From positions 1 through 64,000 of the forward strand of contig JAIPGM010000003.1 in the NCBI GenBank assembly GCA_021735655.1: a DNA stretch of 64,000 nt, written 5' to 3'. Position numbers and translations under genes: made by a program. Below the pieces are notes generated by a model, which saw only the letters and a program-made list of their open reading frames with translations, searched no databases and was not told the origin of the DNA. Source of the stretch: Candidatus Omnitrophota bacterium (GTDB taxonomy: Bacteria; Omnitrophota; Gorgyraeia; Duberdicusellales; 4484-171). Shown in pieces: positions 1 to 64,000 of this stretch. Numbering within the stretch: position 1 is the stretch's first letter; each line of letters begins with the position of its first letter.

Positions 1-141
1 GGTATTTGAAGATTTTAGTAATTTTAAATTACAATCTGATAAAAAAGTTTACCATTTATCTCCAGCCTAATGTAGGGCTTGCGATAAATGGCTTGATATT
101 TTGAGAGTAGAATATACTGGACAATTAACATAGGAGAAAGA

Positions 142-1011
142 ATGAAAGGGATAATTTTGGCCGGAGGCAAGGCTACAAGGCTTTATCCGATAACCAGGGG
201 GGTTTGCAAGCAGATGCTCCCAGTTTACGATAAGCCACTAATTTACTATCCGCTTTCGGTTTTAATGCTTACTGGCATTAAAGACATTTTAATTATTTCA
301 ACGCCTCGCGATACTGAACGCTTTAAAGAGTTATTAGGTGATGGTAGTTCCCTAGGGGTGAATTTTTCCTATAAAGTGCAGGATAAGCCTGAAGGTATAG
401 CCCAAGCCTTTATTCTGGCTGAAGAGTTTATTGGTAAAGACAGTGTTTGTTTAATCTTAGGCGATAATATTTTATATGGACATGATATCTCTGAACTTTT
501 AATTAAAGCCGCCAAAGATGTGTCTGGTGGAGTTATTTTTGGCTATTATGTGAAAGATCCTGAACGATATGGAGTAATTGAATTTGATAATGAGCATAGG
601 ATTTTATCAATTGACGAGAAGCCAAAGGATCCAAAATCAAACTGGGCAGTAACTGGTTTATACTTTTATGATAATCAGGTAGTTAAAATTGCTAAGTCCC
701 TAAAGCCCTCGGCTCGTGGTGAGCTTGAAATTACCGACGTCAATAAAGAGTACTTAAAAAAGGGCAAGTTAAAAACTAAACTTTTAAGTCGTGGTTATGC
801 CTGGCTTGATACCGGAACCCACGATGCTTTAATTGACGCTTCAATGTTTATAAAGACCATTGAAGATCGTCAAGGCTTAAAAGTGGGCTGCATTGAAGAG
901 GTGGCCTATCGTAAGGGTTATATCAATGCTAAACAATTAGAACAGTTAGCCAAGCAGTTAAATACAAGCTATGGTCAATATTTATTGAGAATTTTAACCG
1001 AGCGAGGGTAA
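142..1011 (+). CDS. rfbA: glucose-1-phosphate thymidylyltransferase
   Basis: N-terminal [18 protein letters not shown] and the overall RmlA-like sequence at 289 aa. An AGGAGA RBS sits at 132-137. Confidence 0.9.
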
Positions 1012-1012
1012 A

Positions 1013-1573
1013 ATGTCATTTGAATTTAAAAGATTAGAAATCCCCGAGGTTGTTTTAATTAAGCCTAAATTACGCAGTGACGAAAGAGGCTTTTTTCTTG
1101 AAGCCTATAAACAGAGTGATTTTGTTAAATTTGGCATAACTGATGAATTTGTTCAAGAGAATCATTCTAAATCTTTTGCTAAGGGGGTAATCAGGGGTTT
1201 ACATTTTCAAAAGAAACCTTTCGAGCAGGCAAAGTTAGTAAGAGTGATTGCTGGTAGCGCTTTAGATGTGGCGGTTGATATTCGTCGTGGTTCACCTACC
1301 TTTGGAAAGTGGGTTTCGGCATTACTTTCAACGAAGAATCAGTCGATTCTTTATATACCAACCGGTTTTGCCCACGGGTTTTGTACTTTAGAAGAAAATA
1401 CCGAAGTTATTTATGGTTGTAGTAGTGAGTATTCGCCTCAGCATGATCGAGGGGTTATTTGGTCTGATCAAAATATCGGCATACATTGGCCGATTCTTAA
1501 ACCGGTTCTTTCTGAGCGCGATAAAAAATGGCCGATGTTGAAAGAGGCTGACATTGGGTTTAACTATGTCTAA
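1013..1573 (+). CDS. rfbC: dTDP-4-dehydrorhamnose 3,5-epimerase
   Basis: 186-aa cupin with RmlC-like motifs (GLHFQ, FGKW, PTGFAHGF). Its start abuts the rfbA stop. Confidence 0.85.
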   Translation: MSFEFKRLEIPEVVLIKPKLRSDERGFFLEAYKQSDFVKFGITDEFVQENHSKSFAKGVIRGLHFQKKPFEQAKLVRVIAGSALDVAVDIRRGSPTFGKWVSALLSTKNQSILYIPTGFAHGFCTLEENTEVIYGCSSEYSPQHDRGVIWSDQNIGIHWPILKPVLSERDKKWPMLKEADIGFNYV

Positions 1574-1645
1574 AAATATTTTAAAACTGGTTTTGGACGT
1601 AGATTTTTTAAAAACAGACTAGAGAATTTTTTAAAAATAACAGAA

Positions 1646-1719
1646 CTTGCTGGCTCGCGTGGCGGGCGGGTCGGCCTCAGCACCCTCATAAGCGTACTGA
1701 GGGGATGAGTTTTAGCAAG
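1646..1719 (+). promoter_or_regulatory. GC-rich nested inverted repeat in the rfbB 5' leader; the outer stem overlaps the RBS
   Basis: Outer stem: cttgct (1646-1651) pairs with agcaag (1714-1719). Inner stem: cctcag pairs with ctgagg. The GC-rich island sits in otherwise AT-rich DNA. The SD-like caaggaag lies within the outer 3' arm. Confidence 0.3.
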
Positions 1720-1729
1720 GAAGTGCATT

Positions 1730-3697
1730 ATGAATATATTAGTTACAGGCGGAGCAGGTTTTATAGGTTCACATTTCATTAGGCATCTGCTTAAGAGTCA
1801 CAATCACCGTGTCTTTAACCTTGATAACTTGAGTTATGCCGGAGATTTAGCCAGGCTTAAAGATGTCGAGAAGAACAGCAGGTATCATTTTATAAAGGGA
1901 GATATACGGAATATTGAAAACATTGAGGGAGTTTTTTCTCATGACATCGATACAGTGGTTCATTTAGCTGCCGAAAGCATTCCCGAGGATGTTTATGTCC
2001 CAGTCCAATCTGTCCCCAAGATAGGGACAAGAACAATTACATTTGGTGAGTTGTGGAAAGAACAGTCCAAAAATAATAAGCCCATAAAGAACGAAAAGGG
2101 CGAAGCAATATTTTTAAGAGGCAAACAGACGAAAATTTTAAGTTTTCTGAATGGTGGTCAATGGATGCCAGTCAAAGCAATTACTCGACATAGGTATAAA
2201 GGTAAGATCATAAAACTAATTCAGAAACAAGGAGTTATAAAAGCAACTCCAAACCATTCTATTTATAGTTCAAGTCTTGAGTTGACCAATCCACACACTA
2301 ACCCGGAGTTATTGGTTATTAGAGAAATAAACGAGATAAAAAAAAGGAATAAGAGAAAAAGCTTGGCACTTTTGGAAATTTTAGCAGCTTATATAACAGA
2401 AGGAAATGCGACTTTCAATAAAGCTAATGGCGGATATATCATAGAAATTAATCAAACTAACAAGGGATGGATTGAACATATAGGAGAACTAATTAGAAAA
2501 GAGTTTTCGTTAAAATTCTATATCGGTAAACATAAAAATAAACAGCATAAAGATGTGTTTTATTTACAGGTGTCCAATAAGAAGTTTTTCAATTATTTAA
2601 TAAAAAATTGTGGAAAATATTGTGATGGAAAATTCTTTCCAGATTGGATTTTTGATTTAGAGAGTAATCAACGGAGTTTTTTTTGGAGTAAGTTACTTGA
2701 AGGCGATGGCACTAAAGATGGCAGGTATTCTACGACTTCTTACAAATTAACGAATCAAATCAGCCTCCTTTTGACATTACAAGGAAAAAAATTCAAAGTT
2801 TTTGAATACGATAGAAAGAACTATAAAAGAAGCTGGGAGTTCAAGACTGAATTATCTGGTCAGCATTATGGATTGGTGAAGAGAAAAAAACAGGAAATTC
2901 AATATGAAGGATGGGTTTATGATCTGGAAGTAGAAAAGAGCCACAATTTCGTTTGTGGAATAGGAAATGTAGTTTGTCATAATACCCATGTCGACAATTC
3001 GATTAAGGATCCTTTTGTTTTTGAGGCGGTAAATGTTCGAGGAACGCTCAACCTCCTAGCTTGCGCCAGAAAACACAAGGTTACAAGATTTATTCATATC
3101 TCAACTGATGAAGTTTATGGAGAGATAGAAGAGGGTAAATTTACTGAGGATTCGCATTTAGCACCAAATTCACCTTATTCAGCTTCTAAAGCTGCTGGTG
3201 ATTTTTTTGTTCGTTCTTATATCCGTACTTTTGACTTTCCGGCGATTATTATCCGACCTTCTAATAACTATGGTCCTTGGCAGTATCCTGAGAAGTTTAT
3301 ACCGGTAGCTATATCTAGTGTCTTGGCTGATAAGAAGATACCAGTTTATGCTCAAGGTTTAAATTGTCGCGAATGGCTGTATGTTACTGATTGCGTTAAG
3401 GGTATTGCTTTAATTATGGATAAGGGTAAAGTCGGCGAAGTCTATAATTTAGGTTCAAATATTGAGAGACGAAATATTGATTTAGCTAAAGAGATACTTA
3501 AGATTCTTAATAAGCCCGATGATTTTATTAATTTTGTTGCTGATCGTCCCGGACACGATTTTCGGTATTGCCTAGATTCAGCTAAAGTCAATAATTTGGG
3601 CTGGAGTCCGGAAGTAGGCTTCGAAATTGGCATAACTGCTACTGTTGAATGGTATAAGAATAAGAGAACTTGGACTGAAGGTAAGTTGAGCCGATAA
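1730..3697 (+). CDS. rfbB: dTDP-glucose 4,6-dehydratase precursor containing an intein
   Basis: The N-terminus VTGGAGFIGSH...HLAAE and the C-terminal part (THVDNSI, YSASKAAGD, PSNNYGP) match RmlB. A 336-aa insert separates them. The precursor is 655 aa; a typical RmlB is about 330-350 aa. Confidence 0.85.
   Translation: MNILVTGGAGFIGSHFIRHLLKSHNHRVFNLDNLSYAGDLARLKDVEKNSRYHFIKGDIRNIENIEGVFSHDIDTVVHLAAESIPEDVYVPVQSVPKIGTRTITFGELWKEQSKNNKPIKNEKGEAIFLRGKQTKILSFLNGGQWMPVKAITRHRYKGKIIKLIQKQGVIKATPNHSIYSSSLELTNPHTNPELLVIREINEIKKRNKRKSLALLEILAAYITEGNATFNKANGGYIIEINQTNKGWIEHIGELIRKEFSLKFYIGKHKNKQHKDVFYLQVSNKKFFNYLIKNCGKYCDGKFFPDWIFDLESNQRSFFWSKLLEGDGTKDGRYSTTSYKLTNQISLLLTLQGKKFKVFEYDRKNYKRSWEFKTELSGQHYGLVKRKKQEIQYEGWVYDLEVEKSHNFVCGIGNVVCHNTHVDNSIKDPFVFEAVNVRGTLNLLACARKHKVTRFIHISTDEVYGEIEEGKFTEDSHLAPNSPYSASKAAGDFFVRSYIRTFDFPAIIIRPSNNYGPWQYPEKFIPVAISSVLADKKIPVYAQGLNCREWLYVTDCVKGIALIMDKGKVGEVYNLGSNIERRNIDLAKEILKILNKPDDFINFVADRPGHDFRYCLDSAKVNNLGWSPEVGFEIGITATVEWYKNKRTWTEGKLSR
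1976..2983 (+). mobile_element. intein with LAGLIDADG homing endonuclease domain inserted in rfbB
   Basis: Begins with Ser after HLAAE. Block B-like ATPNHSIY. LAGLIDADG-like LLEILAAYITEGNAT and WSKLLEGDGTKDG. Block F/G WVYDLEVEKSHNFVCGIGNVVCHN, followed by the Thr(+1)HVDNSI extein. Confidence 0.8.
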
Positions 3698-3699
3698 AT

Positions 3700-4629
3700 A
3701 TGGAAAAGCAAGCCAAGATTTATATTGCCGGACACACAGGATTAGTTGGAAGAGCTCTTTTACGTGAGCTTAAAAAAGAAGGTTATGCTAATTTATTAAC
3801 CAGAACCCACCAAGAGCTAGATCTCACCCACCAGACAGAAGTTGAAAGATTTTTTAGCCAAGAGCGTCCTGACTATGTATTTTTAGCTGCGGCTCGAGTT
3901 GGCGGAATCGGCGCAAACAACAGTTACCCGGCAGAATTTATCTATGAAAACCTTATGATTCAGGCTAACGTTATTAATTCAGCATATACCTCAGGGGTTA
4001 AGAAGCTTTTATTCTTTAGCAGTGCTTGCATGTATCCTAAGTATTGCCCTCAGCCAATGAAGGAAGATAGTTTATTGACAGGGTGCCTAGAGCTAACCAG
4101 CGAACCTTATGCTATAGCTAAAATCGCTGGGGTAAAAATGTGTGAGGCTTATAATCGTCAATACAAAACAGGATTTATCTGTATTATACCTTCAAATATT
4201 TATGGTCCTGACGATCATTTTGGTTCTCAAGATTCACATGTGCTTCCGGCTTTGATTGATAAATTTCATAAAGCTAAGATTGCCAATGAACCTTCAGTGA
4301 TAGTTTGGGGGAGTGGAAATTGTAAAAGAGAATTTATCTATGTAGATGATGTTGCTTCGGCTGCAATTTTTCTTATGAATTTATTTGAAATTCATTCTTA
4401 TGTTAATTTGGGATACGGAGAAGATATAACTATAAAAGAGCTAATTGTTGCAGTGAAAGAAATTGTCGGATATAAGGGCGAGATCGTGTTTGATAAGTCT
4501 AAGCCTGATGGAATTTTACGAAAAGCTCTAGATAGTAGCAGAATATTATCTTTTGGCTGGAAGCCAAAGACGTCTTTAGCTAGCGGGTTGGACAAGACCT
4601 ATAAGAGTTTTTTAAAAAAATTTAGTTAA
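3700..4629 (+). CDS. fcl: GDP-L-fucose synthase family 3,5-epimerase/4-reductase (Fcl/WcaG homolog)
   Basis: IYIAGHTGLVG, YVFLAAARVGGIGANNSYPAEFIYENL, QPMKE, EPYAIAKIAG and YNRQY are typical of Fcl. No gmd is seen in the window. Confidence 0.7.
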   Translation: MEKQAKIYIAGHTGLVGRALLRELKKEGYANLLTRTHQELDLTHQTEVERFFSQERPDYVFLAAARVGGIGANNSYPAEFIYENLMIQANVINSAYTSGVKKLLFFSSACMYPKYCPQPMKEDSLLTGCLELTSEPYAIAKIAGVKMCEAYNRQYKTGFICIIPSNIYGPDDHFGSQDSHVLPALIDKFHKAKIANEPSVIVWGSGNCKREFIYVDDVASAAIFLMNLFEIHSYVNLGYGEDITIKELIVAVKEIVGYKGEIVFDKSKPDGILRKALDSSRILSFGWKPKTSLASGLDKTYKSFLKKFS

Positions 4630-4680
4630 GGTTGTGTTTTGCGATAGAAAGTAATATTTATTTTAATATAAGGAGGTTAT

Positions 4681-5520
4681 GTGAAGAAAACAATTAAAAG
4701 TTTAAGAAAAAAAGCTGAAAACATAAGGAAAAATGTTTTAAATATGTGTATTCAGGCCCAAACCGGGCATGTTACCTCTTCTTTGTCTTGTATTGATATT
4801 TTGGTTTCTTTATACCATGGTAATGTCATGCGTCATAGGCCTAATGATCCTGGTTGGGAACAAAGGGATCGATTTATTTTAAGCAAAGGCCAAGCATCTC
4901 CGGCTTTGTATGCAGTTTTGGCTGATTGTGGTTATTTTAATTCGAAAGAACTTAATAATTTTGCTCAAAAAGGCGGAAATTTTGGCGTACACCTACAAGA
5001 TAGTGTACCCGGCGTTGAAATAACTTCTGGCTCACTGGGGCAAGGGTTTGGTTTGGCAGCTGGATTAGCATTAGGGGCTAAAAAGAATCGCAATCTTCAC
5101 TTAGTATTCACTTTACTAGGAGATGGTGAATGTTATGAGGGGTCTATTTGGGAGACAGCTATGTTCGCGGCTCATAATCAATTGAATAATCTCGTAGCAA
5201 TAGTTGATAGAAATTATCTCTGCGTAACTGATTTTACTGAAAATTTAATTGCTTTAGAGCCGTTAGATAAGAAATGGCAAGCTTTTGGTTGGGAAGTTAA
5301 ACGTATTAATGGTCATTCGATCGAGGAAATAATTTCAACTTTATGTCCTTTGCGTTCTAGGCCTTCAAGCAAGCCTCTTGTTGTTATCGCCGATACTGTA
5401 AAGGGAGAAGGAGCTGCTTCTTTGTGCTATCAGCCGTTATGTCATGGAATAGCACCTAAAGGAGAAGAAGCTGAAATAGCTATCAGAGAATTAGAAGGGA
5501 GGTTATGCGATTATGAATAA
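4681..5520 (+). CDS. transketolase, N-terminal (ThDP pyrophosphate-binding) subunit
   Basis: GTG start after an AAGGAGG RBS. Motifs GHVTSSLSCIDIL, DRFILSKGQASPALYAVLA and GSLGQGFGLAAGLA. Confidence 0.85.
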   Translation: MKKTIKSLRKKAENIRKNVLNMCIQAQTGHVTSSLSCIDILVSLYHGNVMRHRPNDPGWEQRDRFILSKGQASPALYAVLADCGYFNSKELNNFAQKGGNFGVHLQDSVPGVEITSGSLGQGFGLAAGLALGAKKNRNLHLVFTLLGDGECYEGSIWETAMFAAHNQLNNLVAIVDRNYLCVTDFTENLIALEPLDKKWQAFGWEVKRINGHSIEEIISTLCPLRSRPSSKPLVVIADTVKGEGAASLCYQPLCHGIAPKGEEAEIAIRELEGRLCDYE

Positions 5521-6451
5521 TATTTCTCAGCGTGATGCTTTTTGGAATAAGGTGTATGACAAGGCTGTTTTAGATAAAAATATCATCGTTGTCTCAGCTG
5601 ACATGGGTGCTCCAGCCCTTGATCAATTCAGGAAAGATTTTCCCTCACAGTTTGTTAATGTCGGAATTGCTGAGCAGAATGGTATAGCTATATCAGCTGG
5701 CCTTGCTTTAAGTGGTAAAAAAGTTTTTGTTTATGCGATAGCCCCGTTTATTACTTTACGTTGCTTGGAGCAAATAAGAGTAAACAATGCGATTATGAAC
5801 ATACCGATAACTATAGTTGGGGTTGGTGCCGGATTTGGTTACGAGGATTCAGGGCCGACGCATCATATTACTGAAGATCTTGCGATTATGCGTTCTATGC
5901 CCAACATAACAATTCATAGTATATCTGATAGTATCATGTCTCGAGCCATGGCTGTTATATCGTGCCAAATGAAGAACACTAATTACGTACGTTTAGATCG
6001 TTTAGTCCTTCCGAATTTATATCAAGAAAATGAGGATTTTTCTAAAGGTCTGTCAATTTTAGAAGAGTCAAAAGAAGCTTATATCATTGCAACCGGAAGT
6101 ATGGTTCATGTTGCTTTAGAGGCAGCAAAAAATATTAAGCAGCAAGGCTTTGATATCGGCGTAATTGATGTTTATTCTTTGCCGTTTAACGAAAAATTAC
6201 TTATTGATTTTATAAAAGGAGTTAAAAGGGTCGTGACCTTGGAAGAACATTTTCTTCCCGGTGGCCTTGGCAGTGCGGTCTGTGAAGTCATGCAGGATAA
6301 GGGGGTGTTATTGCCGGTTAAACGAATTGGCTTGTCTATGGAAAAGGGCTATTGCTATAAATATGGTGGCAGAGATATCATAAGAAGTTATTATGGTGTT
6401 GATTCTGGGTCCGTGACAAATATAGTGTCTGATTTTTTACAAGGAAAGTAA
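5513..6451 (+). CDS. transketolase, C-terminal (pyrimidine-binding) subunit
   Basis: GIAEQNGIAISAGLALSGKK and GPTHHITEDLAIMRSMPN. Overlaps the upstream gene by 8 nt. Confidence 0.85.
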   Translation: MNNISQRDAFWNKVYDKAVLDKNIIVVSADMGAPALDQFRKDFPSQFVNVGIAEQNGIAISAGLALSGKKVFVYAIAPFITLRCLEQIRVNNAIMNIPITIVGVGAGFGYEDSGPTHHITEDLAIMRSMPNITIHSISDSIMSRAMAVISCQMKNTNYVRLDRLVLPNLYQENEDFSKGLSILEESKEAYIIATGSMVHVALEAAKNIKQQGFDIGVIDVYSLPFNEKLLIDFIKGVKRVVTLEEHFLPGGLGSAVCEVMQDKGVLLPVKRIGLSMEKGYCYKYGGRDIIRSYYGVDSGSVTNIVSDFLQGK

Positions 6452-6454
6452 ATT

Positions 6455-7387: not shown

Positions 7388-7390
7388 ATT

Positions 7391-12100: not shown

Positions 12101-12127
12101 TTGTATACAGAATAAGGGCAGAAAAGT

Positions 12128-14273: not shown

Positions 14274-14297
14274 ATGTCGTTAGGGAAATAGATTAGT

Positions 14298-15368: not shown

Positions 15369-15388
15369 AATAGCACTATTACCCAAAG

Positions 15389-19578: not shown

Positions 19579-19579
19579 T

Positions 19580-45051: not shown

Positions 45052-45082
45052 TAGTGTTGTTTTGTGCAGAGCGAATAAATTT

Positions 45083-46018: not shown

Positions 46019-46028
46019 GTAAATTTTT

Positions 46029-47828: not shown

Positions 47829-47852
47829 GTATAAAAAGGAAATTAAGGTTAG

Positions 47853-48737: not shown

Positions 48738-48738
48738 A

Positions 48739-49683: not shown

Positions 49684-49709
49684 TCAGGAGGATAATTTAA
49701 TTTAACGGT

Positions 49710-52160: not shown

Positions 52161-52167
52161 TGTTTGA

Positions 52168-53343: not shown

Positions 53344-53480
53344 CTTATGACAAGAAACAATTATAGGAGTTATATATTTTTATTTGATGTTTATTGTTTT
53401 ATTGTTGCCGCTATATATGTAGGGTGGAGAATATTTATTTTTCTAAAAAGATATTTTTAGGATACTGTTTAATCAATAAA

Positions 53481-55127: not shown

Positions 55128-55128
55128 G

Positions 55129-55920: not shown

Positions 55921-55990
55921 GGGTAAATTAAAACTAGGAAGGGTTAAACATGAAGAAAGCTTTAAAGGCTAAAGTTTAGGAGGTTAGTAA

Positions 55991-56776: not shown

Positions 56777-57753
56777 ATACGCAAGTAAAATTTTGGAAAG
56801 GCAAAAGAGTCTTGATTACGGGCTATGAAGGATTCTTAGGATCTAATCTTGCTAAAGTTCTGCTAAACTTTGGTGCAAAGATATCGGGTTTGGATATTTT
56901 GACTAGAAGAAAAGATACAATCCTTACTCAAAAAGAATTAGCCAAGATAAAGATAATTAAAGGAAATGTTGATAATTTATCTTTAGTAAAGAGGATTTTA
57001 AGGAATGATAAAATAGAGGTTATTTTTCATCTCGCTGCAGAGGCTTTAGTTGGCGAGTGTCTAAAAAGACCAGTCAAAGGATTTTCGACCAATATTAAGG
57101 GAACTTGGAATATTTTAGAAGCTTGGCGGCAAACAAAAATAGCCAAAGCAATAGTTGTAGCTTCAAGCGATAAAGCCTACGGAAGTCATTCTAAGCTTCC
57201 TTATAAAGAAGATAGTGCGCTTTGCGGTTTGCATCCCTATGATGTTTCGAAGTCATGTGCTGACTTAATTGCTCATGCTTATCATAATACCTATGGAGCG
57301 CCGGTAGTGATAACTCGCTGTGGTAACATTTTTGGTCCGGGAGACTTCAATTTTTCCAGAATTGTTCCTGAAACCTTACGTTCGGTAATTAGAAATAAAA
57401 CTTTGGTTATTCGTAGTGATGGAAAGTTCACTCGTGATTATGTATATGTTGATGATATTGTAGCCGGATATATAAACTTAGCTCAAAAATCTAAAAAGTT
57501 AAAACTATTTGGCCAGGCTTTTAATTTTAGCGCCGAGCAGCCGCTTTCAGTTTTAGCTTTGGTAAAGTTGATTTATAAATTAGCTGACAGAAGATCTAAC
57601 TATAAAATCTTAAAACAGGCGAAATATGAAATTAAGCATCAATATCTTTCATCTAGGAAGGCTGCTAGAGTTCTTGGCTGGAAACCAAAGCTGAAGCTAG
57701 ATAAGGCTTTGGAGAAAACTTACCAGTGGTATAAAGATAATCTAAGCAAATGA
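56770..57753 (+). CDS. rfbG: CDP-glucose 4,6-dehydratase
   Basis: FWKGKRVLITGYEGFLGS, YDVSKSCAD. ATG 56770 overlaps the rfbF stop; an alternative in-frame TTG lies at 56761. Confidence 0.85.
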   Translation: MVNTQVKFWKGKRVLITGYEGFLGSNLAKVLLNFGAKISGLDILTRRKDTILTQKELAKIKIIKGNVDNLSLVKRILRNDKIEVIFHLAAEALVGECLKRPVKGFSTNIKGTWNILEAWRQTKIAKAIVVASSDKAYGSHSKLPYKEDSALCGLHPYDVSKSCADLIAHAYHNTYGAPVVITRCGNIFGPGDFNFSRIVPETLRSVIRNKTLVIRSDGKFTRDYVYVDDIVAGYINLAQKSKKLKLFGQAFNFSAEQPLSVLALVKLIYKLADRRSNYKILKQAKYEIKHQYLSSRKAARVLGWKPKLKLDKALEKTYQWYKDNLSK

Positions 57754-58490
57754 AGATAAATTTTTTAGGAACAAATGGATGGTACGATACTGATACCGGA
57801 AATACTCTTTGTATTCTTATTGAAACTAAAAAAGAATATATTATTCTCGATGCCGGAGGCGGTTTTTACAAAATTGGTCAATATATAAAGAAAAAGAAGC
57901 CAATTTATCTTTTCTTAAGCCATTTTCATCTCGACCACATTATTGGACTTCATACCTTATTGCTAGGTAACTTTTCTCAGGGGATTAAGCTTTACGGACC
58001 ACCGGGAGTAAAGAAATACTTATCACAAATAGTAAATTATCCTTATACAGCGCCAATTTCTAAGTTAAAAACAAAGGTTATCGTTAATCAAATTAAAAAA
58101 GAAGTACGTTTTCCTTTTAAGGTTGAGTTTGGCAAGCTGCTTCATCCTTCATTATGTTACGGCTATCGGTTTAATTTGGAAGGCAAAACAATTGTTTATT
58201 GCACCGATACCGGAATTTGCAGTAATTTATATAAGTTAGCTAGGGATTCTGATTTATTTATTACTGAATGCTCGGCGACTGCCGGAAAAAAGGAAAAGGA
58301 TTGGCCTCATTTAACGGCTCAGGATGCAGCTAAGGTTGCTAAGAAATCCCAAGTAAAAAAATTATTTTTAGTTCATTTTAATGCTTCCTTATTTAAAACT
58401 GAAAAGCAACGCAATATGGCTAAGGCACAAGCAAAAGAGATATTTGGGAATACTTTTGCGGCCAGTGACGGACAAGTAGTTAATTTATAA
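57750..58490 (+). CDS. MBL-fold metallo-hydrolase
   Basis: HFHLDHIIGL (HxHxDH) motif. 246 aa. Confidence 0.6.
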   Translation: MKINFLGTNGWYDTDTGNTLCILIETKKEYIILDAGGGFYKIGQYIKKKKPIYLFLSHFHLDHIIGLHTLLLGNFSQGIKLYGPPGVKKYLSQIVNYPYTAPISKLKTKVIVNQIKKEVRFPFKVEFGKLLHPSLCYGYRFNLEGKTIVYCTDTGICSNLYKLARDSDLFITECSATAGKKEKDWPHLTAQDAAKVAKKSQVKKLFLVHFNASLFKTEKQRNMAKAQAKEIFGNTFAASDGQVVNL

Positions 58491-58501
58491 AGCTTTAAAT
58501 A

Positions 58502-59386
58502 ATGAAGAAAACACCCGTAGCTATAATTGGTACTGGAAATATTGGTACTGATCTTTTAATTAAGATCCAGCGTTCGTCAATTTTAGAATGTGTTCTTTTT
58601 ACTGGCCGGCGTCTAGATTCACGGGGCATGCAAAGAGCAAGGTTGCTTGGCGTACCCATTTCCGATCAATCAATAAAAGCCATTCAGAGAAATCATAATA
58701 TTTGCGATATAGTCTTTGACGCAACCTCAGCTAAAGCTCATCAATATCACGCACCAATTTTAAAGAAATTAGGTAAGATCGCTATAGACTTAACGCCTTC
58801 AAAAGTTGGCAAGATGTGTATACCGGTTATTAACATGAACCAATGTTTAGATGAAAATAATGTGAATTTGGTTACTTGCGGCGGTCAAGCAGCTATTCCA
58901 ATAGCTCATGCAATTATGAGGGTGCATCCGGAGACCGAATATATAGAAGTTGTAGCAAGTATTGCTTCTAAATCCGCGGGCCTTGGGACTAGAGATAATA
59001 TTGATGAGTTTACTCAGACTACCGGTGATGCTATTTTAAATTTTACCGGAGTTCCTCGGGCAAAGGCAATTATTATTTTAAATCCGGCTGAACCACCAGT
59101 TTTAATGCACAATACCATTTATGCCCAGATTACTAAGCCAAAGATCAAAAAAATGACTGCGGCAATAAATGATATTGTTAACAAGGTTCAAAAATATGTT
59201 CCTGGTTATAAAGTAACTGTGGGTCCAGTGGCCGAGGGCAATCGGGTAACGGTTATGATTGAGGTGGTGGGTTTGGGCGATTTTCTTCCTAAATATTCCG
59301 GCAACTTAGATATTATTACCTGCGCTGCTGTGAATATTGCGGAAAGTTTTGCTCAAAAAAAGATAAGAGGCAAAGTGCCTTTATGA
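58502..59386 (+). CDS. acetaldehyde dehydrogenase (acetylating), DmpF/MhpF family
   Basis: VAIIGTGNIGTDLLIKI, VTCGGQAAIP, ASIASKSAGLGTRDNIDEFT, near-colinear with MhpF. Confidence 0.8.
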   Translation: MKKTPVAIIGTGNIGTDLLIKIQRSSILECVLFTGRRLDSRGMQRARLLGVPISDQSIKAIQRNHNICDIVFDATSAKAHQYHAPILKKLGKIAIDLTPSKVGKMCIPVINMNQCLDENNVNLVTCGGQAAIPIAHAIMRVHPETEYIEVVASIASKSAGLGTRDNIDEFTQTTGDAILNFTGVPRAKAIIILNPAEPPVLMHNTIYAQITKPKIKKMTAAINDIVNKVQKYVPGYKVTVGPVAEGNRVTVMIEVVGLGDFLPKYSGNLDIITCAAVNIAESFAQKKIRGKVPL

Positions 59387-60435
59387 AAAAAAGGAAAAAG
59401 ATTTTATTCTTTGATTCTACTTTGCGCGATGGGTCTCATGCAATTAGCCATCAGCTGAAAGCTTCCCAGATTAAGCAATATTGTAAGTATGCAGATGACT
59501 CAGGGTTACATACAATTATTGTCGGCCATGGAAATGGTCTAAGTGCCTCATCTTTGCAGGTAGGGTTGTCGGCTCTTTCTGATACAGAGATGATTGTAAC
59601 TGCTCGCAAGAATCTTAAAGCTACGAAATTGGGAGTTTTTTTGATTCCTGGTTTTGGTACAATTAAGGATGATCTTGCTCCGGCAATTGATCAAGGGGTT
59701 GATTTAGTTTGTGTTGCTTCTCATTGTACCGAGGCTAATGTTACTCGTCAACATATCGAATACGTAAGAAAACGAGGCAAAGCCGCTTATGGGGTTTTAA
59801 TGATGCAGCATATGGCTTCAGCCGAACGTTTATCCGAAGAAGCTCACAAAATGCAAGATTATGGCGCATTGGGTGTTATTTTAATGGATTCTGCCGGAGC
59901 TTCTCATCCGGAGATGGTTTCAGAGCGGGTTGGCCTACTAGTTAAGAATCTTGATTGTCAAGTTGGATTCCATGCTCATAATAATTTAGGTTTAGCGATT
60001 GCTAATTCATACAGTGCAATTAAAGCTGGGGCTACAATTATTGATGGAACAGTTAGGGGTTTTGGGGCTGGGGCCGGGAATTGTCAAATTGAAGTTTTAG
60101 CAGGATTGCTCTATAAAATTGGCGTAAAGACAGGTCTAGATTTATATAAATTGATGGATGTTGGTGATGAAGTAGTAACTAAATTGAGTGAGAAATCTCA
60201 AGGTGTGAGCTCAATTAGCCTAATTAGCGGAATAACTGGGGTTTTTTCGGGTTTTTCTAAACATGTTGAGAAAGCAGCTAAGCGATTTGGCGTTGATCCG
60301 CGAGATATTTTTATGGAGTTAGGAAAAAGAAAAATGGTAGCCGGGCAGGAAGATTATATTGTTGACGTGGCAATGTATTTAGCTCAGAAGAAAACTGGCC
60401 AGAAAGACAGCTATCAGATAGAATCACTTTCTTAA
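59383..60435 (+). CDS. 4-hydroxy-2-oxovalerate aldolase-like (DmpG/MhpE family, DRE-TIM)
   Basis: DSTLRDGSHAI, GFHAHNNLGLAIANS, MVAGQEDYIVDVA, matching the HOA aldolase family. Confidence 0.8.
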   Translation: MKKRKKILFFDSTLRDGSHAISHQLKASQIKQYCKYADDSGLHTIIVGHGNGLSASSLQVGLSALSDTEMIVTARKNLKATKLGVFLIPGFGTIKDDLAPAIDQGVDLVCVASHCTEANVTRQHIEYVRKRGKAAYGVLMMQHMASAERLSEEAHKMQDYGALGVILMDSAGASHPEMVSERVGLLVKNLDCQVGFHAHNNLGLAIANSYSAIKAGATIIDGTVRGFGAGAGNCQIEVLAGLLYKIGVKTGLDLYKLMDVGDEVVTKLSEKSQGVSSISLISGITGVFSGFSKHVEKAAKRFGVDPRDIFMELGKRKMVAGQEDYIVDVAMYLAQKKTGQKDSYQIESLS

Positions 60436-60448
60436 TAAGGAGTAGACA

Positions 60449-62230
60449 ATGAGAGTGGCCGATTACATTTTTAATTTTTTAGTCGATAAAGGCGTAAGAA
60501 ATGTTTTTATGGTTTCCGGCGGCCAAGCTATGTTTTTGGTTGATGCTGTTGGACGTCAAAAAGAAATAGAAGTTGTTTGTACACATCATGAACAGGCAGC
60601 TGGGATGGCAGCTGAAGCTTATGGGCGAGTAACTCAAAAATTAGGAGTAGCTTTAGTTACTGCCGGGCCGGGCAGTATGAATATTGTAAATGCGGTAGCC
60701 GGAGGCTGGACAGATTCATCACCAATGATGGTTATTTCCGGCCAATCATCTTTATCATATGTACAGTATCAAGAAGAAACTAATATTCGACAGTATGGAA
60801 TTCAAGGAATTTACATTAAGCCAATAGTTCAGAATATTACTAAGTATTTTGTTACTGTTGATGATCCAGCAAAAATTTTATTTTATCTTCAAAAAGCTTA
60901 TTATTATGCAACTACTGGGCGTCCTGGCCCGGTTTGGATCGATGTTCCGATTGATGTGCAAAAGATGGAGGTTCCCGATCGCTTATTAGAAGAGTTTGAA
61001 CCACCGCTTGAGGCTTATCTTCCCGATGAGCTAACAGATAGTGTTGAGCTGTTATTGACGACAATTTCCAAAGCTAAGCGGCCAATATTTTTAGTTGGCC
61101 AGGGTGTTCGCTTGGGCGGTGCGGTTGATCAGTTTTATCAAGTTCTTGAAAGATTAGCGATTCCGGTATTAACCTCGCGTCTGGGAATAGATTTAATTAA
61201 TAGTGATCATCGTCTTTATGTCGGTCGTCCAGGAATTTATGGTGAGCGAGCAGCTAACTTTGCAATTCAGAATGCTGATGTTATAGTGGCTGTTGGCTCG
61301 CGCTTAGCAACAGCATTAGTTGGCTATGATTCTAAAAACTTTGGTAAACAGGCTTATAAAATAGCTGTTGATATTGATAAAAAAGAGCTAAATAAGATCG
61401 GCGTTGAAATAAATTTGCGAATTCATGCTGATGTAAAAGATTTTTTTAAAGAAATCCAGCGGCAGCTAGTTTCGGTTTCAGTTGGCGATTTTAGTCAATG
61501 GATTAAACAATGTAATGATTGGAAAAAGAACTATCCGGTAGTTTTGCCGTCTTATGAGAAGGAGAAACCAGTCAATTCTTATTATTTTACTGAAAAGCTA
61601 TCTCAGGTTACACCTTCTGAGGTAATGGTTTTGGTTGATACTGGTTCTTGTTTTCATGTGGCTTGTCAGGCTTGGAAGATTAAAACCGGGCAACGTTTTC
61701 TTACTACTGGGGGTCTTTCTTCGATGGGTTATTGGGCTGCAGTTTTGGGGGTTTGCGAGGCCAACAATCGAAAGAATACGATTGTTATTACCGGTGATGG
61801 TAGCTTACAGATGAATTTACAGGAATTAGCAACAATTAAACATTACAATTTTCCGATTAAAGTTATTATTTTCAATAACAACGGTTATCTTTTAATAAGG
61901 CATACACAGAAGAACTACATGAATAGTCGTTTTTGCGGTGAAGGGCCGGATAGCGGTGTTTGGTGTCCGGATTCTTTAAGGATAGCCGAGGCCTATGGGA
62001 TTAAAGGTGTCCGCATAGATTCAGTTAAAGGGCTTAGTGAAAAAATTAAAGAAGTAATTGAATATCCCGGCCCGGTGGTTTGCGATGTAATGACTCCTGA
62101 GTGGCAATTACTTATTCCTCGAGTTTCTTCAGAAAAAAAGCCCGATGGAACATTGGTTTCAAAACCCTATGAAGATATGTACCCGTTTTTGAGTAAAAAA
62201 GAATTAAAACAAAACATGCTTTTTGAATAA
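60449..62230 (+). CDS. thiamine-diphosphate-dependent enzyme, acetolactate-synthase-like (YerE-like carboligase candidate)
   Basis: N-terminal Pyr domain (VFMVSGGQAMFLVDA), central domain, C-terminal PP domain GDGSLQMNLQEL. 593 aa. Confidence 0.75.
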   Translation: MRVADYIFNFLVDKGVRNVFMVSGGQAMFLVDAVGRQKEIEVVCTHHEQAAGMAAEAYGRVTQKLGVALVTAGPGSMNIVNAVAGGWTDSSPMMVISGQSSLSYVQYQEETNIRQYGIQGIYIKPIVQNITKYFVTVDDPAKILFYLQKAYYYATTGRPGPVWIDVPIDVQKMEVPDRLLEEFEPPLEAYLPDELTDSVELLLTTISKAKRPIFLVGQGVRLGGAVDQFYQVLERLAIPVLTSRLGIDLINSDHRLYVGRPGIYGERAANFAIQNADVIVAVGSRLATALVGYDSKNFGKQAYKIAVDIDKKELNKIGVEINLRIHADVKDFFKEIQRQLVSVSVGDFSQWIKQCNDWKKNYPVVLPSYEKEKPVNSYYFTEKLSQVTPSEVMVLVDTGSCFHVACQAWKIKTGQRFLTTGGLSSMGYWAAVLGVCEANNRKNTIVITGDGSLQMNLQELATIKHYNFPIKVIIFNNNGYLLIRHTQKNYMNSRFCGEGPDSGVWCPDSLRIAEAYGIKGVRIDSVKGLSEKIKEVIEYPGPVVCDVMTPEWQLLIPRVSSEKKPDGTLVSKPYEDMYPFLSKKELKQNMLFE

Positions 62231-63188
62231 TAAAGGACAAATTTTGATTAAGAAAAAAAACGTACTAGTTACTGGTGCTCGTGGATTCATTGGAAAAAAT
62301 ATTGTTGAACATTTCAAAGCTAACCTTTCAAACAATTATACTGTTTTTTCTCCCTATCATAATGAGTTAGAACTGCTTGATTCTCAAGTGGTTATTTCGT
62401 TTATTAAGAGTAAATCAATAGATCTTATTATTCATTGTGCTAATATTGGGGGATCACGTAAAACTGCCTACGATCAAGATCGTACTGATGTGGTATATAA
62501 AAATTTAGCGATGTTTTTTAATCTAGTCGGTGCAATGAATAAAGACACTCGAATGGTATTTTTTGGTAGCGGCGCAGAGTATGCCAGAGCCTATTATAAG
62601 CCCAAGATGAAAGAAGATTATTTCGATGAACACATACCGGAAGATAGCTACGGTTTTTCAAAATACGTATGTTCTAAGTATATAGAAAGTTCTGAGAAAA
62701 TAGTAAATTTGCGTCTTTTCGGAGTTTTTGGAAAGCACGAAGATTATGAGTTTAAATTTATATCTAATGCTATTGTTAAAAATTTATTAGGTTTACCAAT
62801 CACCATAAATCAAAATATTTATTTTGATTATTTGTATATAAACGATTTTTTAAAGATAGTTGAGTATTTTATAGATAAAATGCCTAAACAAAAGTTTTAT
62901 AACGCTGCTAGAGGCCAAACAATTGACTTGGTAACGATAGCTAAAGAAATTAATAAAGTTTCCGAAAAGCAGTCGGAGATAATTGTTAAACATGAAGGTT
63001 TGAATACCGAGTATAGTGCCGATAATTCAAGACTTTTAAAAGAAATCGGTAATTTTGACTTTACTCCTTTTGACCAAGCAATAAAGGAGTTGTATCTTTG
63101 GTATAAATCTAATTTGAATAAAATTAATAAAGCCAAAATTACCAAAGATGAATATATTAAGTATTGTCACATAGATAGCCAACAGTAA
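62223..63188 (+). CDS. NAD-dependent epimerase/reductase (extended SDR)
   Basis: VLVTGARGFIGKN and YGFSKYVCSK (YxxxK). Confidence 0.65.
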   Translation: MNNKGQILIKKKNVLVTGARGFIGKNIVEHFKANLSNNYTVFSPYHNELELLDSQVVISFIKSKSIDLIIHCANIGGSRKTAYDQDRTDVVYKNLAMFFNLVGAMNKDTRMVFFGSGAEYARAYYKPKMKEDYFDEHIPEDSYGFSKYVCSKYIESSEKIVNLRLFGVFGKHEDYEFKFISNAIVKNLLGLPITINQNIYFDYLYINDFLKIVEYFIDKMPKQKFYNAARGQTIDLVTIAKEINKVSEKQSEIIVKHEGLNTEYSADNSRLLKEIGNFDFTPFDQAIKELYLWYKSNLNKINKAKITKDEYIKYCHIDSQQ

Positions 63189-64000
63189 TGAATAACCAGA
63201 AGTTATTGCGAAAACAAATCCTTAAAAAGGTGAAGGACTTTCAAGTCAAAAGTCCAAAGTCTAAATTTGTTCCCGGCGAAACTTATATTAACTATGCTGG
63301 GCGTATTTTTGACCATGAAGAACTCATCAATTCAGTTGATGCTTCTTTAGATTTTTGGTTAACTTCTGGACGATTCGCTTGTGAGTTTGAGAAGGAGTTA
63401 GCAAGATTTTTAGGAATTAAACATTGCATGTTAACAAATTCCGGTTCTTCGGCCAATCTTTTAGCTATTTCAGCGTTAAAGTCACCGTTATTAAAGAAAC
63501 GAAGTTTGAAGGCAGGCGATGAAGTTATTACCACTGCTTGCGGATTCCCGACAACTTTAAATCCAATTTTACAAAATAATCTTGTTCCGGTTTTTGTTGA
63601 TTTGGAGTTGGGTACCTATAATATTGATGTTACTAAAATAGAGCGAGCAATTTCTAAGAAAACAAAGGCTATTTTTGTTGCTCATACCTTAGGTAACCCG
63701 GTTGAACTAGATGCAATTATGAAAATAGTTAAAAAGCATAATTTATTTTTTATCGAAGATAATTGCGACAGTCTAGGTTCTAAATATAATGATAAATATA
63801 CCGGCAGTTTTGGTCAAATTTCAACTTGTAGTTTTTATGCCAGCCATCATATCACTATGGGAGAGGGCGGAGCGGTTTTAACCAATGACCCTTTACTTCG
63901 CAAGATAATTCTTTCTTTACGCGATTGGGGCCGTGATTGTTTTTGTGAACCAGGCCGGGATAATAGTTGTGGTAAGCGGTTTTCTAAAAAGCAGGGTAAG
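63188..64000 (+). CDS. ddhC: CDP-6-deoxy-D-xylo-4-hexulose 3-dehydrase (E1, DdhC/RfbH/AscC), 3'-truncated by the window end
   Basis: SFYASHHITMGEGGAV (His replaces Lys) and RDWGRDCFCEPGRDNSCGKRF iron-sulfur Cys motif. No stop codon before the window end. Confidence 0.8.
   Translation, partial: MNNQKLLRKQILKKVKDFQVKSPKSKFVPGETYINYAGRIFDHEELINSVDASLDFWLTSGRFACEFEKELARFLGIKHCMLTNSGSSANLLAISALKSPLLKKRSLKAGDEVITTACGFPTTLNPILQNNLVPVFVDLELGTYNIDVTKIERAISKKTKAIFVAHTLGNPVELDAIMKIVKKHNLFFIEDNCDSLGSKYNDKYTGSFGQISTCSFYASHHITMGEGGAVLTNDPLLRKIILSLRDWGRDCFCEPGRDNSCGKRFSKKQGK

Follow-up and report, generated by a model that had tools for sequence, protein, structure and literature searches.

Gene content and layout

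The first 64,000 nucleotides of contig JAIPGM010000003.1 (the whole of this stretch is termed the window here), from a metagenome-assembled genome (MAG) of a Candidatus Omnitrophota bacterium, hold a tightly packed run of genes in which all Pfam and NCBIfam assignments fall into sugar-nucleotide, glycosyltransferase, modification or export functions. Fifty-six complete open reading frames (ORFs) of 186-795 amino acids, numbered g1 to g56, tile positions 142-63188 of the + strand in the ORF listing, and a 57th gene (RfbH) starts at 63188 on that strand and continues past the window end; every gene described below lies on the + strand. Minus strand ORFs of at least 100 amino acids number four in all, each nested within + strand genes, and there is no credible antisense gene in the window. 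Coding density is 98.9%, and GC skew is positive in all 2-kb bins, with a bin GC of 0.32-0.41. An earlier note on this DNA had counted more than 55 co-directional + strand genes and had suggested an uncultivated low-GC lineage; both statements hold, with 56 complete genes and one partial gene (in the same number and order at NCBI) and an origin in a Candidatus Omnitrophota MAG.

The run extends on both sides. On Logan contig SRR12088349_3401 (90,288 bp), assembled from the same population, approximately 82 called genes between positions 2 and 89,313 occupy a single strand, an arrangement with a chance probability (for ~82 of 82 genes) of 2^-81 under 50:50 strand use and of about 1e-8 under an 80% strand bias. 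This one-strand run of glycan genes, whose middle 64 kb make up the window, covers at least 90 kb and approximately 82 genes.

Upstream of the window, the Logan contig carries four short-chain dehydrogenases (SDRs), one of them a true GDP-mannose 4,6-dehydratase (Gmd), together with one aminotransferase, an ATP sulfurylase, two adenosine phosphosulfate (APS) kinases, a CysQ-like phosphatase, a carbamoyltransferase, a third B12-radical-SAM (S-adenosylmethionine) enzyme and a MarR-family regulator, named ‘MarR family EPS-associated transcriptional regulator’ by NCBI (EPS, exopolysaccharide). Downstream are found a GT2 glycosyltransferase, a WbaP/WcaJ-type initiating transferase (471 residues, 434 bits to TIGR03025, approximately 2 kb beyond the window end), VanZ and metallo-beta-lactamase-fold genes, a Wzy_C protein (419 residues, 79.8 bits), two phosphodiesterase-family proteins and, near the Wzy_C gene, a GT9 transferase.

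Of 55 junctions counted between neighbouring genes in the window, 18 are overlaps (4 nucleotides in eleven cases, 7 in one, 8 in two, and 11, 16, 53 and 116 in one case each), the two longest of which are probably start-codon artefacts of choosing the longest ORF. The remaining junctions comprise 24 gaps of 0-15 nucleotides, eight of 16-40 and five above 40. Overlaps of 4-8 nucleotides, which had been thought to make up most of the junctions, thus account for only 14 of the 55, although 42 (overlaps included) are no wider than 15 nucleotides. The five larger gaps are 1574-1729 (156 nucleotides), 42026-42091 (66), 55921-55990 (70), 4630-4680 (51) and 53344-53480, the last of which measures 137 nucleotides with the gene caller’s start of g48 and 50 with the longest ORF; four of them had been listed in the earlier note as the only substantial ones, and all four exist, but the 51-nucleotide gap has to be added.

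Shine-Dalgarno-like motifs precede 31 of the 56 starts, as compared to 22% of random positions. In the two stretches scanned for promoters and terminators (1-20000 and 40001-60000), no + strand terminator-like site was found in any gap, and the counts of sigma-70 promoters and of terminators were at chance level. The + strand contains no ops/JUMPstart motif, and scans of the window with Rfam (at gathering thresholds) and for tRNA found no RNA element. The largest intergenic gap on the Logan contig, 224 nucleotides ahead of the MarR-family gene, contains a promoter-like TTGACA-16 nt-TATAAT sequence (L090:14390-14417 on that contig), located approximately 1.3-1.5 kb upstream of rmlA. The tight spacing, the Shine-Dalgarno-like motifs and the gaps free of terminator-like sites suggest a small number of very long transcripts, for which the promoter of the MarR-family gene is probably the main start.

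Integrity of the assembly

A run of this length on one strand invites the objection that its architecture is an assembly artefact, that is, a chimeric contig in which unrelated loci have been fused. Two observations lend the objection some substance, both at the left edge. Positions 1-131 of the window are absent from the Logan assembly of the same population (100 of 131 bases are mismatched, with exact identity from base 132 onward), and in the NCBI MAG the genes upstream of this point are placed on a separate 70-kb contig. The break lies 10 nucleotides upstream of the rmlA ATG. In the Logan contig an Fcl-family epimerase ends with an ATGA overlap onto rmlA (in the NCBI MAG this epimerase and all genes upstream of it are on the 70-kb contig), and a relative from another sample, ENA ERZ24794656 NODE_2 (‘NODE_2’ below), displays the order of the Logan assembly, MarR-epimerase-RmlA-RmlC. 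Identity to NODE_2 falls from 87.5% in RmlA to 57% in the epimerase. Window bases 2-70 may represent the 3' terminal part of a further + strand ORF. Neither positions 1-131 nor their junction found a match in the JGI metagenome contig collection, the sole outside collection scanned. Positions 1-131 mark, exactly at a recombination boundary, a structural variant between strains or else an artefact at the end of a contig.

From base 132 onward, in contrast, all compared parts of the two assemblies are identical: 25 kb aligned base by base (132-13697 and 52223-64000) contain no mismatch. The NCBI annotation of the same MAG lists the same 56 proteins in the same order and with consecutive accessions (g1 is MCF7907769 and g55 is MCF7907823, followed by RfbH, the initiating transferase, Wzy_C and GT9 with accessions ending in 825, 827, 830 and 832), all on one 278,835-bp contig, and its gene model matches the present one in gene count and order. 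Relatives from other samples span the junctions from g31 to g47, from g45 to the initiating phosphoglycosyl transferase, from the MarR-family gene to g6 and from g49 to GT9, and the composition of the window is uniform. Because of the absence of mismatches in the compared parts and the agreement with the NCBI proteins and their order, the interior is well corroborated, and a chimeric origin is extremely improbable; mis-assembly, which the earlier note had named as grounds for abandoning its account, is not borne out beyond the disagreement over positions 1-131.

Pathways to activated sugars

The genes of the window fall into cassettes that would each deliver a nucleotide-activated sugar. The dTDP-L-rhamnose pathway is complete. 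RmlA (g1, glucose-1-phosphate thymidylyltransferase, 142-1011; 260 bits to Pfam NTP_transferase; RfbA, MCF7907769.1, at NCBI) and RmlC (g2, dTDP-4-dehydrorhamnose 3,5-epimerase, 1013-1573; 237 bits to dTDP_sugar_isom) are followed by RmlB (g3, dTDP-glucose 4,6-dehydratase, 1730-3697), which is split by an intein, while RmlD (g43, dTDP-4-dehydrorhamnose reductase, 47853-48737; 259 bits to RmlD_sub_bind) lies 44 kb away from the other three. The earlier proposal that dTDP-rhamnose is made at the locus thus finds all four Rml families in place.

The next gene, g4 (3700-4629), encodes a GDP-L-fucose synthase of the Fcl type, which matches E. coli 1bsv over its full length with 346 bits, and which scores 452 against the NF047922 cutoff of 500. 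Its partner Gmd is found beyond the window, at 1491-2534 of the Logan contig (429 bits to 1n7g) and approximately 17 kb upstream of Fcl, so that both steps of the GDP-L-fucose pathway are encoded; by family assignment, the pair would supply a GDP-6-deoxyhexose. Other candidates for the GDP side within the window are the PtmE-like and HddC-like transferases described below.

The cassette g5-g13 is less conventional. A split transketolase (N-terminal subunit g5, 4681-5520; C-terminal subunit g6, 5513-6451) is followed by an NAD-dependent sugar epimerase/reductase of the SDR family (g7, 6455-7387), a B12-binding radical SAM enzyme (g8, 7391-8887), a GHMP sugar kinase that is distantly HddA-like (g9, 8884-9954; 146 bits, well under the equivalog cutoff), a HddC/ManC-like sugar-1-phosphate nucleotidylyltransferase (g10, 9951-10658), a second B12-binding radical SAM enzyme (g11, 10655-12100, for which the gene caller starts at 10664), a xylose-isomerase-like TIM-barrel protein (g12, 12128-13072) and a DegT-family sugar aminotransferase/dehydrase (g13, 13062-14273). 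These assignments rest on Pfam and NCBIfam (on Pfam for g12), and the combination probably yields a C-methylated or chain-extended, aminated sugar.

Three NeuB-type synthase domains are present (in the C-terminal part of g16, the N-terminal part of g18, and g26), so that an earlier count of two ulosonic acids falls short. The first two belong to a group of genes that begins with two fusions: g16 (17191-19578) joins an FAD oxidoreductase (GLF/amine-oxidase-like) to a NeuB-type synthase and g18 (20660-22423) joins a divergent NeuB-type synthase to a CMP-sugar synthetase, with an NAD(P)-binding oxidoreductase between them (g17, 19463-20656, whose true start is probably later than 19463, as judged from Pfam and the junctions). 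These are accompanied by a DegT-family aminotransferase that is PseC/LegC-like (g19, 22433-23605), a soluble protein of 428 residues with no match in Pfam, NCBIfam or PDB sequences (g20, 23608-24894) and three GFO/IDH/MocA oxidoreductases (g21-g23, 24905-25891, 25898-26875 and 26889-27887). As shown by family assignment, g16-g23 would supply a second NeuB-dependent ulosonate.

The third synthase is part of a complete gene set for CMP-legionaminic acid. It comprises a PtmE-like CBS-domain sugar-1-phosphate nucleotidylyltransferase (g32, 35116-36195), a LegB-type 4,6-dehydratase (g33, 36143-37171; TIGR04180, 443 against a cutoff of 475), the LegC aminotransferase (g34, 37182-38381; TIGR04181, 489 against 420), a NeuD/PglD/LegH N-acetyltransferase that passes its NCBIfam cutoff (g28, 31613-32266), a NeuC/LegG hydrolysing 2-epimerase (g27, 30431-31597; TIGR03568, 483 against 236), the NeuB/LegI nonulosonate synthase (g26, 29391-30434; TIGR03569, 466 against 400) and a LegF/PseF-like CMP-nonulosonate synthetase (g24, 27884-28594; 153 against 205). 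A PtmA-like SDR (g25, 28591-29397) lies among them, as do three genes that form an acetamidino-forming amidotransferase set (g29-g31, WbuZ/HisF-like, HisH-like and WbuX, 32263-35087; 281, 196 and 342 bits). The predicted product of g24-g34, again shown by family assignment, is a nonulosonate of the CMP-legionaminic-acid type that carries an acetamidino group.

A further cassette consists of a P-loop protein (g35, 38394-39434) that is conserved beside g36-g38 in relatives, the third CMP-sugar synthetase (g36, a CTP_transf_3 protein, 39449-40111), an AroB-type enzyme resembling 3-dehydroquinate synthase (g37, 40123-41262; 318 against the cutoff of 305 for the aroB equivalog TIGR01357) and an SDR (g38, 41264-42025). 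By family assignment these would supply a third CMP-activated product, and it is conceivable that this is a carbocyclic or rearranged ulosonate. The cassette is kept beside g39 in Omnitrophota and in one Margulisiibacteriota MAG.

At the right end of the window lies a CDP-sugar module. RfbF (glucose-1-phosphate cytidylyltransferase) and RfbG (CDP-glucose 4,6-dehydratase), encoded by g50-g51 (55991-57753), score 293 against a cutoff of 300 and 220 against 278, respectively. They are followed by a metallo-beta-lactamase-fold hydrolase (g52, 57750-58490), by an acetaldehyde dehydrogenase and a 4-hydroxy-2-oxovalerate aldolase that are ErwJ/ErwI-like (g53-g54, 58502-60435; 400 and 384 bits, above the cutoffs), by a YerE/ErwE-like carboligase dependent on thiamine diphosphate (ThDP) and a YerF/ErwF-like NAD(P)H reductase (g55-g56, 60449-63188), and by the 5' part of RfbH/DdhC, the CDP-4-keto-6-deoxyglucose 3-dehydrase (63188-64000). 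The full RfbH gene is found at L002:10966-12276, and the full protein scores 694 bits against a cutoff of 423. No gene for an E3 (DdhD) reductase was seen in the module. In Pectobacterium, ErwJ, ErwI, ErwE and ErwF together with the genes for CDP-4-keto-3,6-dideoxyglucose have been proposed, and partly verified, to make erwiniose (PMC9306805). The gene set for this type of sugar is complete here (RfbF, RfbG, RfbH, ThDP carboligase, reductase, BphI-type aldolase and BphJ-type dehydrogenase), and by analogy the product is likely to be an erwiniose-type, C4-acyl-branched CDP-3,6-dideoxy sugar.

The list of carriers given in the earlier note (dTDP, GDP, CMP three times and CDP) is accordingly upheld by RmlABCD, by Fcl with Gmd, by three CTP_transf_3 domains and by RfbF/G/H. 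Several of the equivalog scores lie below their cutoffs, and therefore the exact identities of the sugars are predictions.

Genes for glycan assembly

Interspersed with the cassettes are genes for the assembly of a glycan. A GT2-like glycosyltransferase of family TIGR04440 (g14, 14298-15368; 177 bits against a cutoff of 70) precedes a fused ABC exporter of the MsbA/HepA/PglK type (g15, 15389-17194), a candidate flippase. The remainder lie in the right half of the window: the GT-B-fold transferase g39 (42092-44260), a SAM-dependent methyltransferase (g40, 44299-45051), a radical SAM/SPASM enzyme (g41, 45062-46018), a 599-residue protein with a weak match (33 bits) to the ‘surface carbohydrate biosynthesis’ family TIGR04326 (g42, 46029-47828), a GT2 glycosyltransferase (g44, 48739-49683), a Wzy-like polytopic membrane protein (g45, 49710-51431), a second methyltransferase (g46, 51432-52160), a GT4 glycosyltransferase (g47, 52168-53343), the membrane glycosyltransferase g48 (53481-55127) and a WecG/TagA-family glycosyltransferase (g49, 55129-55920; 212 bits). 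Five proteins of the window (g20, g35, g39, g42 and g48) have no Pfam match even at E = 10, and for three of these (g20, g35 and g42) there is no sequence relative in the PDB.

The g39 protein (722 residues) belongs to an unannotated family. Its fold is GT-B, nearest to TagF/TarL polymerases and to the CMP-Kdo domain of WaaA. Approximately 76 word-indexed homologues were found, chiefly in Omnitrophota and Margulisiibacteriota MAGs, while an exhaustive profile search defined a family of 1009 clusters at 50% identity (E <= 1e-30). The best 80 species-representative genomes with a g39 homologue, all of which are MAGs, include Omnitrophota, Terriglobia, Nitrospiraceae, Elusimicrobia, Dehalococcoidia and others. 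Within 10 kb of g39 homologues, at 84 loci examined, LegC-like genes were found 51 times, PtmE-like 46, LegB-like 42, g42-like 35, WbuX 27, and NeuB and NeuC 25 times each. Because legionaminic-acid genes so often neighbour its homologues, we infer that g39 is a transferase or polymerase for a sugar of this type. Neither g42 nor g20 has a profile relation to g39. Low-GC loci around the homologues are almost always wholly co-directional over 22 kb.

The g48 protein (548 residues with the gene caller’s start; the longest ORF begins at 53394) displays a GT-C fold nearest to ArnT, protein mannosyltransferases (PMT) and oligosaccharyltransferases (OST). Its family is common in Omnitrophota, where g48 is kept beside WecG and the initiating transferase, and contains an invariant acidic motif, Q115-E116-x-D118. 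On the basis of its family and this motif, g48 probably works at the periplasmic face with a donor linked to polyprenyl phosphate. The g45 protein has approximately nine transmembrane segments, with a hydrophilic insert of ~230 residues, rich in charged residues, between membrane blocks (roughly residues 245-480), and scores 28.3 against the Wzy_C cutoff of 31.7. NCBI names it ‘O-antigen ligase family’ and lists a shorter product of 378 residues. A Pfam search of the window and the precomputed Pfam listings of the flanking genes yielded neither Wzx (Polysacc_synt or MATE-type) nor Wzz; these two sources also underlie the negative results given below for flagellar and capsule-export genes.

Conserved backbone and exchanged cassettes

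Comparison with relatives separates a conserved part of the locus from a variable one. A distant Omnitrophota contig, JBAZJY010000001.1, is collinear with g31-g47 (17 genes; about 22 kb when taken as g30 to g47/48) at 35-80% identity (46% for g39), and differs by one inserted B12-radical-SAM gene and by a swapped methyltransferase/SPASM pair. In two other Omnitrophota, genes like g45/g47, a GT2 gene, g48, WecG, the initiating transferase and VanZ or Wzy_C are directly adjacent; the eight-gene CDP-sugar cassette, which in the present genome sits between WecG and the initiating transferase, is missing from both. In one of the two the whole locus measures only ~14 kb and is flanked by HSP70 and kinase genes.

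The closer relative NODE_2 (428,992 bp, with the locus at ~244-364 kb) matches the locus at each of its two ends, with identities of 52-94%. It lacks Gmd with the neighbouring epimerase, a 6-kb block from CysQ to the B12-radical-SAM gene, the intein and the 156-nucleotide rmlC-rmlB spacer, and has extra genes for E1-dehydrogenase subunits as well as, between WecG and RfbF, two genes in antisense orientation, one for an aldo-keto reductase and one for a B12-radical-SAM enzyme. The distance from ATP sulfurylase to the ThDP enzyme is 98 kb in NODE_2 and 70 kb here, which puts the NODE_2 locus at 110 kb or more; locus length among relatives thus ranges from ~14 kb to at least 110 kb. In a further Omnitrophota MAG (L010, JAHKAJ010000015.1), g29-g32 are 91, 75, 95 and 90% identical to those of the window, beyond which identity drops to 68, 61, ... 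49 and 30% (30-69% for g33-g42). This pattern indicates that an exchange took place recently, with its breakpoint close to the boundary between g32 and g33.

Per-gene GC (0.30-0.42) and GC at third codon positions (GC3, 0.25-0.39) reveal no outlier among the 56 genes, and codon usage is uniform; the earlier suggestion that such measures might betray horizontal assembly is not borne out. There is no tRNA gene in the window and no integrase among the genes of the contig. Taken together, uniform GC, GC3 and codon usage and the lack of tRNA and integrase genes rule out a foreign, horizontally acquired island. The mosaic identities and the homogeneous composition indicate instead that variability arises through recombination among relatives, in which sugar cassettes are gained, lost and swapped on a phylum-conserved assembly backbone. 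The ‘hypervariable surface-glycan island’ of the earlier note therefore survives as a modular surface-glycan locus, with cassettes inserted and deleted among relatives as that note had anticipated, but not as a foreign island, and much of it is kept throughout the phylum.

The same data bear on whether the run might be several independent glycan loci that happen to follow one another, for instance one for an O-antigen, one for nonulosonates and protein glycosylation, and one for the lipopolysaccharide (LPS) core. Three NeuB-type synthases and three CMP-synthetases, along with two Wzy_C-type proteins and ~10 transferases, would suit such a composite, as would the gaps of 50-156 nucleotides (which could carry promoters), the occurrence in other phyla of g39 with the legionaminic-acid block and without the remaining locus, and the existence in one relative of the ~14-kb backbone by itself. 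However, the pathways are interleaved across the run, because rmlD is 44 kb from rmlA, rmlC and rmlB, Gmd lies ~17 kb from Fcl, and the initiating transferase is found downstream of everything. The gaps of the two scanned stretches contain no terminator-like site, and relatives keep the same gene order. A composite of independent loci is therefore judged unlikely.

Proposed function and the acceptor of the glycan

The genes are probably best described as a modular, rfb-like supercluster of Omnitrophota for a lipid-linked surface glycan, which might operate as follows. Cytoplasmic cassettes would supply sugars activated with dTDP, GDP, CMP and CDP, and the WbaP/WcaJ-type phosphoglycosyl transferase would prime undecaprenyl phosphate. 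Approximately ten transferases (WecG/TagA, GT2, GT4, TIGR04440, GT9 and g39) would then build the glycan unit, in which g39 probably draws on a CMP donor to add the sugar of the legionaminic-acid type. The product could be decorated by methyltransferases and radical SAM enzymes, and enzymes encoded upstream may add carbamoyl groups to it and, via 3'-phosphoadenosine-5'-phosphosulfate (PAPS), sulfate. Since no Wzx was found, the MsbA/PglK-type ABC exporter is the candidate to flip the lipid-linked glycan; the Wzy-like g45 and the GT-C enzyme g48 would act on it at the periplasmic face, and the Wzy_C (WaaL/PglL-type) enzyme would pass it to an acceptor, most likely lipid A-core.

A number of points weigh against this description or limit its detail. 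The equivalog scores of Fcl, LegB, RfbF, RfbG, the HddA/C-like proteins and the PseF-like protein are below the NCBIfam cutoffs; no Wzx or Wzz was found, as described above; and g45 is under the Wzy_C cutoff. WaaL and PglL are inseparable by sequence, and g48, with its GT-C fold, is as similar to protein glycosyltransferases as it is to ArnT. Three ulosonate synthases, ~10 transferases and two Wzy_C-type proteins could also serve two or more glycans. The operon structure is a predicted one, the five gaps of 50-156 nucleotides could hold internal promoters, and the two assemblies disagree on the sequence directly upstream of rmlA (window 1-131).

With respect to the acceptor, lipid A-core (that is, LPS) is the leading candidate, although it is put forward tentatively. 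An LPS O-antigen-type polymer is favoured by the MarR-headed, rfb-like layout, the WbaP/WcaJ-type transferase, the Wzy-like and Wzy_C proteins, the GT9 gene and the erwiniose-type module. Measured against what defines an O-antigen cluster, sugar-nucleotide genes are clustered with glycosyltransferases and an initiating transferase is present, while Wzx and Wzz were not found, and g45 and the downstream Wzy_C protein are candidates for Wzy and for WaaL (or PglL), respectively; we therefore say that the locus works like an rfb locus but do not class it among established O-antigen clusters.

A protein-linked oligosaccharide (on pilin, S-layer or periplasmic glycoproteins), transferred by a PglL-type Wzy_C enzyme or by g48, is the alternative that the GT-C enzyme and the WaaL/PglL ambiguity bring into play. 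The GT-C fold of g48 matches Pmt4, Pmt2, AglB, STT3 and PglB as well as it does ArnT, and PglL-type O-oligosaccharyltransferases contain Wzy_C domains. Furthermore, the combination of an ABC flippase with a phosphoglycosyl transferase resembles the logic of the Campylobacter Pgl system, the window yielded neither Wzz nor Wzx, and type IV or Tad pili are encoded by nearly all Omnitrophota (PMC10066038). This alternative is nonetheless somewhat unlikely, given the rfb-like layout with a MarR-family gene at its head, a 3' end that holds a GT9 gene (of the heptosyltransferase family) as well as an ‘O-antigen ligase family’ protein, sugars of the erwiniose type that are known from LPS (PMC9306805), a Wzy-like polymerase candidate that suggests a polymer, and the lack of any pilin or S-layer gene within 90 kb.

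Less probable still, in our judgement, is a capsule or exopolysaccharide, in which the polymer would be exported and ligated to neither lipid A-core nor protein. The NCBI name of the regulator refers to EPS, the initiating transferase scores best against EPS/WcaJ families, the ABC exporter scores best against HepA (a heterocyst polysaccharide exporter), and g39 resembles TagF-like capsule polymerases. Yet Wza, Wzc, KpsMT and KpsC/S are all missing from the 90 kb, as is any further gene for outer-membrane export, and Wzy_C ligase-type and GT9 genes are present; such an export route is quite improbable.

Flagellin glycosylation is the last of the acceptors and products that had been put forward. 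Neither the window nor the flanking listings contain Maf, FlmG or flagellar genes, and the same holds for the capsule-export genes KpsM/T, KpsC/S, Wza and Wzc. Of the candidates in the earlier note, flagellin glycans and a Kps/Wza-type capsule are consequently unsupported, while pilin and S-layer glycans are a less likely alternative; the leading candidate, LPS, had not been among them.

Comparison with known systems

The closest architecture is that of the rfb locus for LPS O-antigen in Leptospira, which is likewise very large, headed by a MarR gene and equipped with fcl, an ABC transporter and methyltransferases. Its median size is 60.7 kb in saprophytes and ~99.5 kb in pathogens (PMC4758666). 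There, a MarR regulator followed by fcl and by variable 5' sugar-modifying genes precedes a more conserved 3' part with processing and dTDP-rhamnose genes, and an ABC transporter and methyltransferases are included (PMC10958091). Two window proteins show weak matches to the Leptospira-named families LIC13510 and LIC_10190. An origin of the DNA in Leptospira, which weak matches of this kind, the GC content and the rfb-like size might suggest, is rejected on account of the exact matches to an Omnitrophota MAG. There are also differences: the Omnitrophota locus belongs to another phylum, its rml genes lie partly at the 5' end and partly in the middle, no Wzx was detected, and it has three NeuB paralogues, an erwiniose-type module, a GT-C enzyme and the g39 family.

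The correspondence of protein families to steps in the legionaminic-acid pathway of Campylobacter jejuni is well established, and g32, g33, g34, g28, g27, g26 and g24 match that pathway step for step; a WbuX/HisH/HisF set for the acetamidino group is likewise present, where the C. jejuni pathway has a PtmG-type amidotransferase. Unlike the C. jejuni genes, those of the window lie in a polysaccharide-assembly locus with no flagellin or Maf gene, LegB and the CMP-synthetase fall below their equivalog cutoffs, and the part of the transferase probably falls to g39, a GT-B protein of an unannotated family. The erwiniose and yersiniose clusters (ErwE/F/I/J of Pectobacterium atrosepticum and YerE/F of Yersinia pseudotuberculosis) offer the same gene set as the CDP module (PMC9306805), which differs from them in having an extra metallo-beta-lactamase-fold gene and no visible E3 (DdhD) gene, and its product is predicted. 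Finally, PglK of C. jejuni and Wzk of Helicobacter pylori with WaaL provide the precedent for a fused ABC half-transporter among glycosyltransferases, with no Wzx and with Wzy_C downstream; in contrast to those systems, the g15 protein scores 241 against a PglK equivalog cutoff of 1000 and a Wzy-like candidate is also present; the flippase role of g15 is a predicted one.

The architecture follows a known rfb-type pattern, and what is notable is the size of the locus relative to a 1-3 Mb genome and the number of uncharacterised enzymes within it. Omnitrophota are uncultivated, for the most part ultra-small bacteria whose genomes are reduced (0.86-3.2 Mb) and which are suspected to depend on hosts (PMC10066038); the same publication, the main study of Omnitrophota genomics, contains no discussion of glycan loci. 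A locus of 90 kb or more would amount to ~3-10% of such a genome, which suggests that a major investment goes into surface-glycan diversity, and this diversity may set attachment, the evasion of predators and phages, or partner specificity. The locus offers testable enzymes (a new GT-B family with links to legionaminic acid, a GT-C enzyme that is conserved, and an AroB-like enzyme in a CMP-sugar cassette), places an erwiniose-type branching module outside Proteobacteria and Actinobacteria, and clearly illustrates how cassettes are exchanged in nature while the assembly backbone is conserved. A broader proposition, which we regard as doubtful at present, is that ultra-small Omnitrophota and some other uncultivated phyla share a conserved glycan ‘super-operon’ of 90 to >110 kb with an undescribed core chemistry, of which g39 as transferase or polymerase for legionaminic acid, a CMP-activated product of the AroB-type cyclase and a sugar made by B12-radical-SAM enzymes and transketolase may be parts. 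If true, a cassette-swapped coat could set the host or partner specificity of host-dependent nanobacteria.

The rmlC-rmlB spacer and the RmlB intein

The largest intergenic gap of the window (1574-1729) separates rmlC from rmlB and folds into a GC-rich double hairpin at ~1649-1709, with a folding energy of -31.2 kcal/mol (z = -2.35) and no match in Rfam. It is the sole intergenic GC-rich stretch of the window, the one other GC-rich stretch being intragenic. In NODE_2, where the spacer is missing, rmlC and rmlB overlap.

Immediately beyond the spacer, RmlB matches TIGR01181 in two stretches (393 bits against a cutoff of 365), between which lies an intein of 336 residues, S83-N418, with a LAGLIDADG homing-endonuclease domain (1976-2983). 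The motifs run from Ser1 through TPNH, two LAGLIDADG-like motifs and VVCHN to a Thr at the start of the C-extein, and the score of 26 with the model for intein C-termini exceeds the cutoff of 15.6, while two Pfam models stay just below theirs (Intein_splicing at 31.9 against 35.8 and LAGLIDADG_3 at 20 against 22.5). The RmlB of NODE_2, at 326 residues, has no intein, and reads HLGAE-THVDNSI at the exact insertion site; another MAG has a 658-residue version of RmlB at 90% identity or more. All that distinguishes a class 1 intein with a homing endonuclease, including an empty allele of the host site, was therefore found, and the earlier report of an intein in the first dehydratase is confirmed by the motifs and by that allele. 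Presence of the intein differs among close relatives, and identity to the NODE_2 protein is lower in the N-extein (69%) than in the C-extein (83%). The activity of RmlB would presumably require prior splicing of the intein. At NCBI, g3 appears as a 510-residue ‘GDP-mannose 4,6-dehydratase’, both truncated and misnamed.

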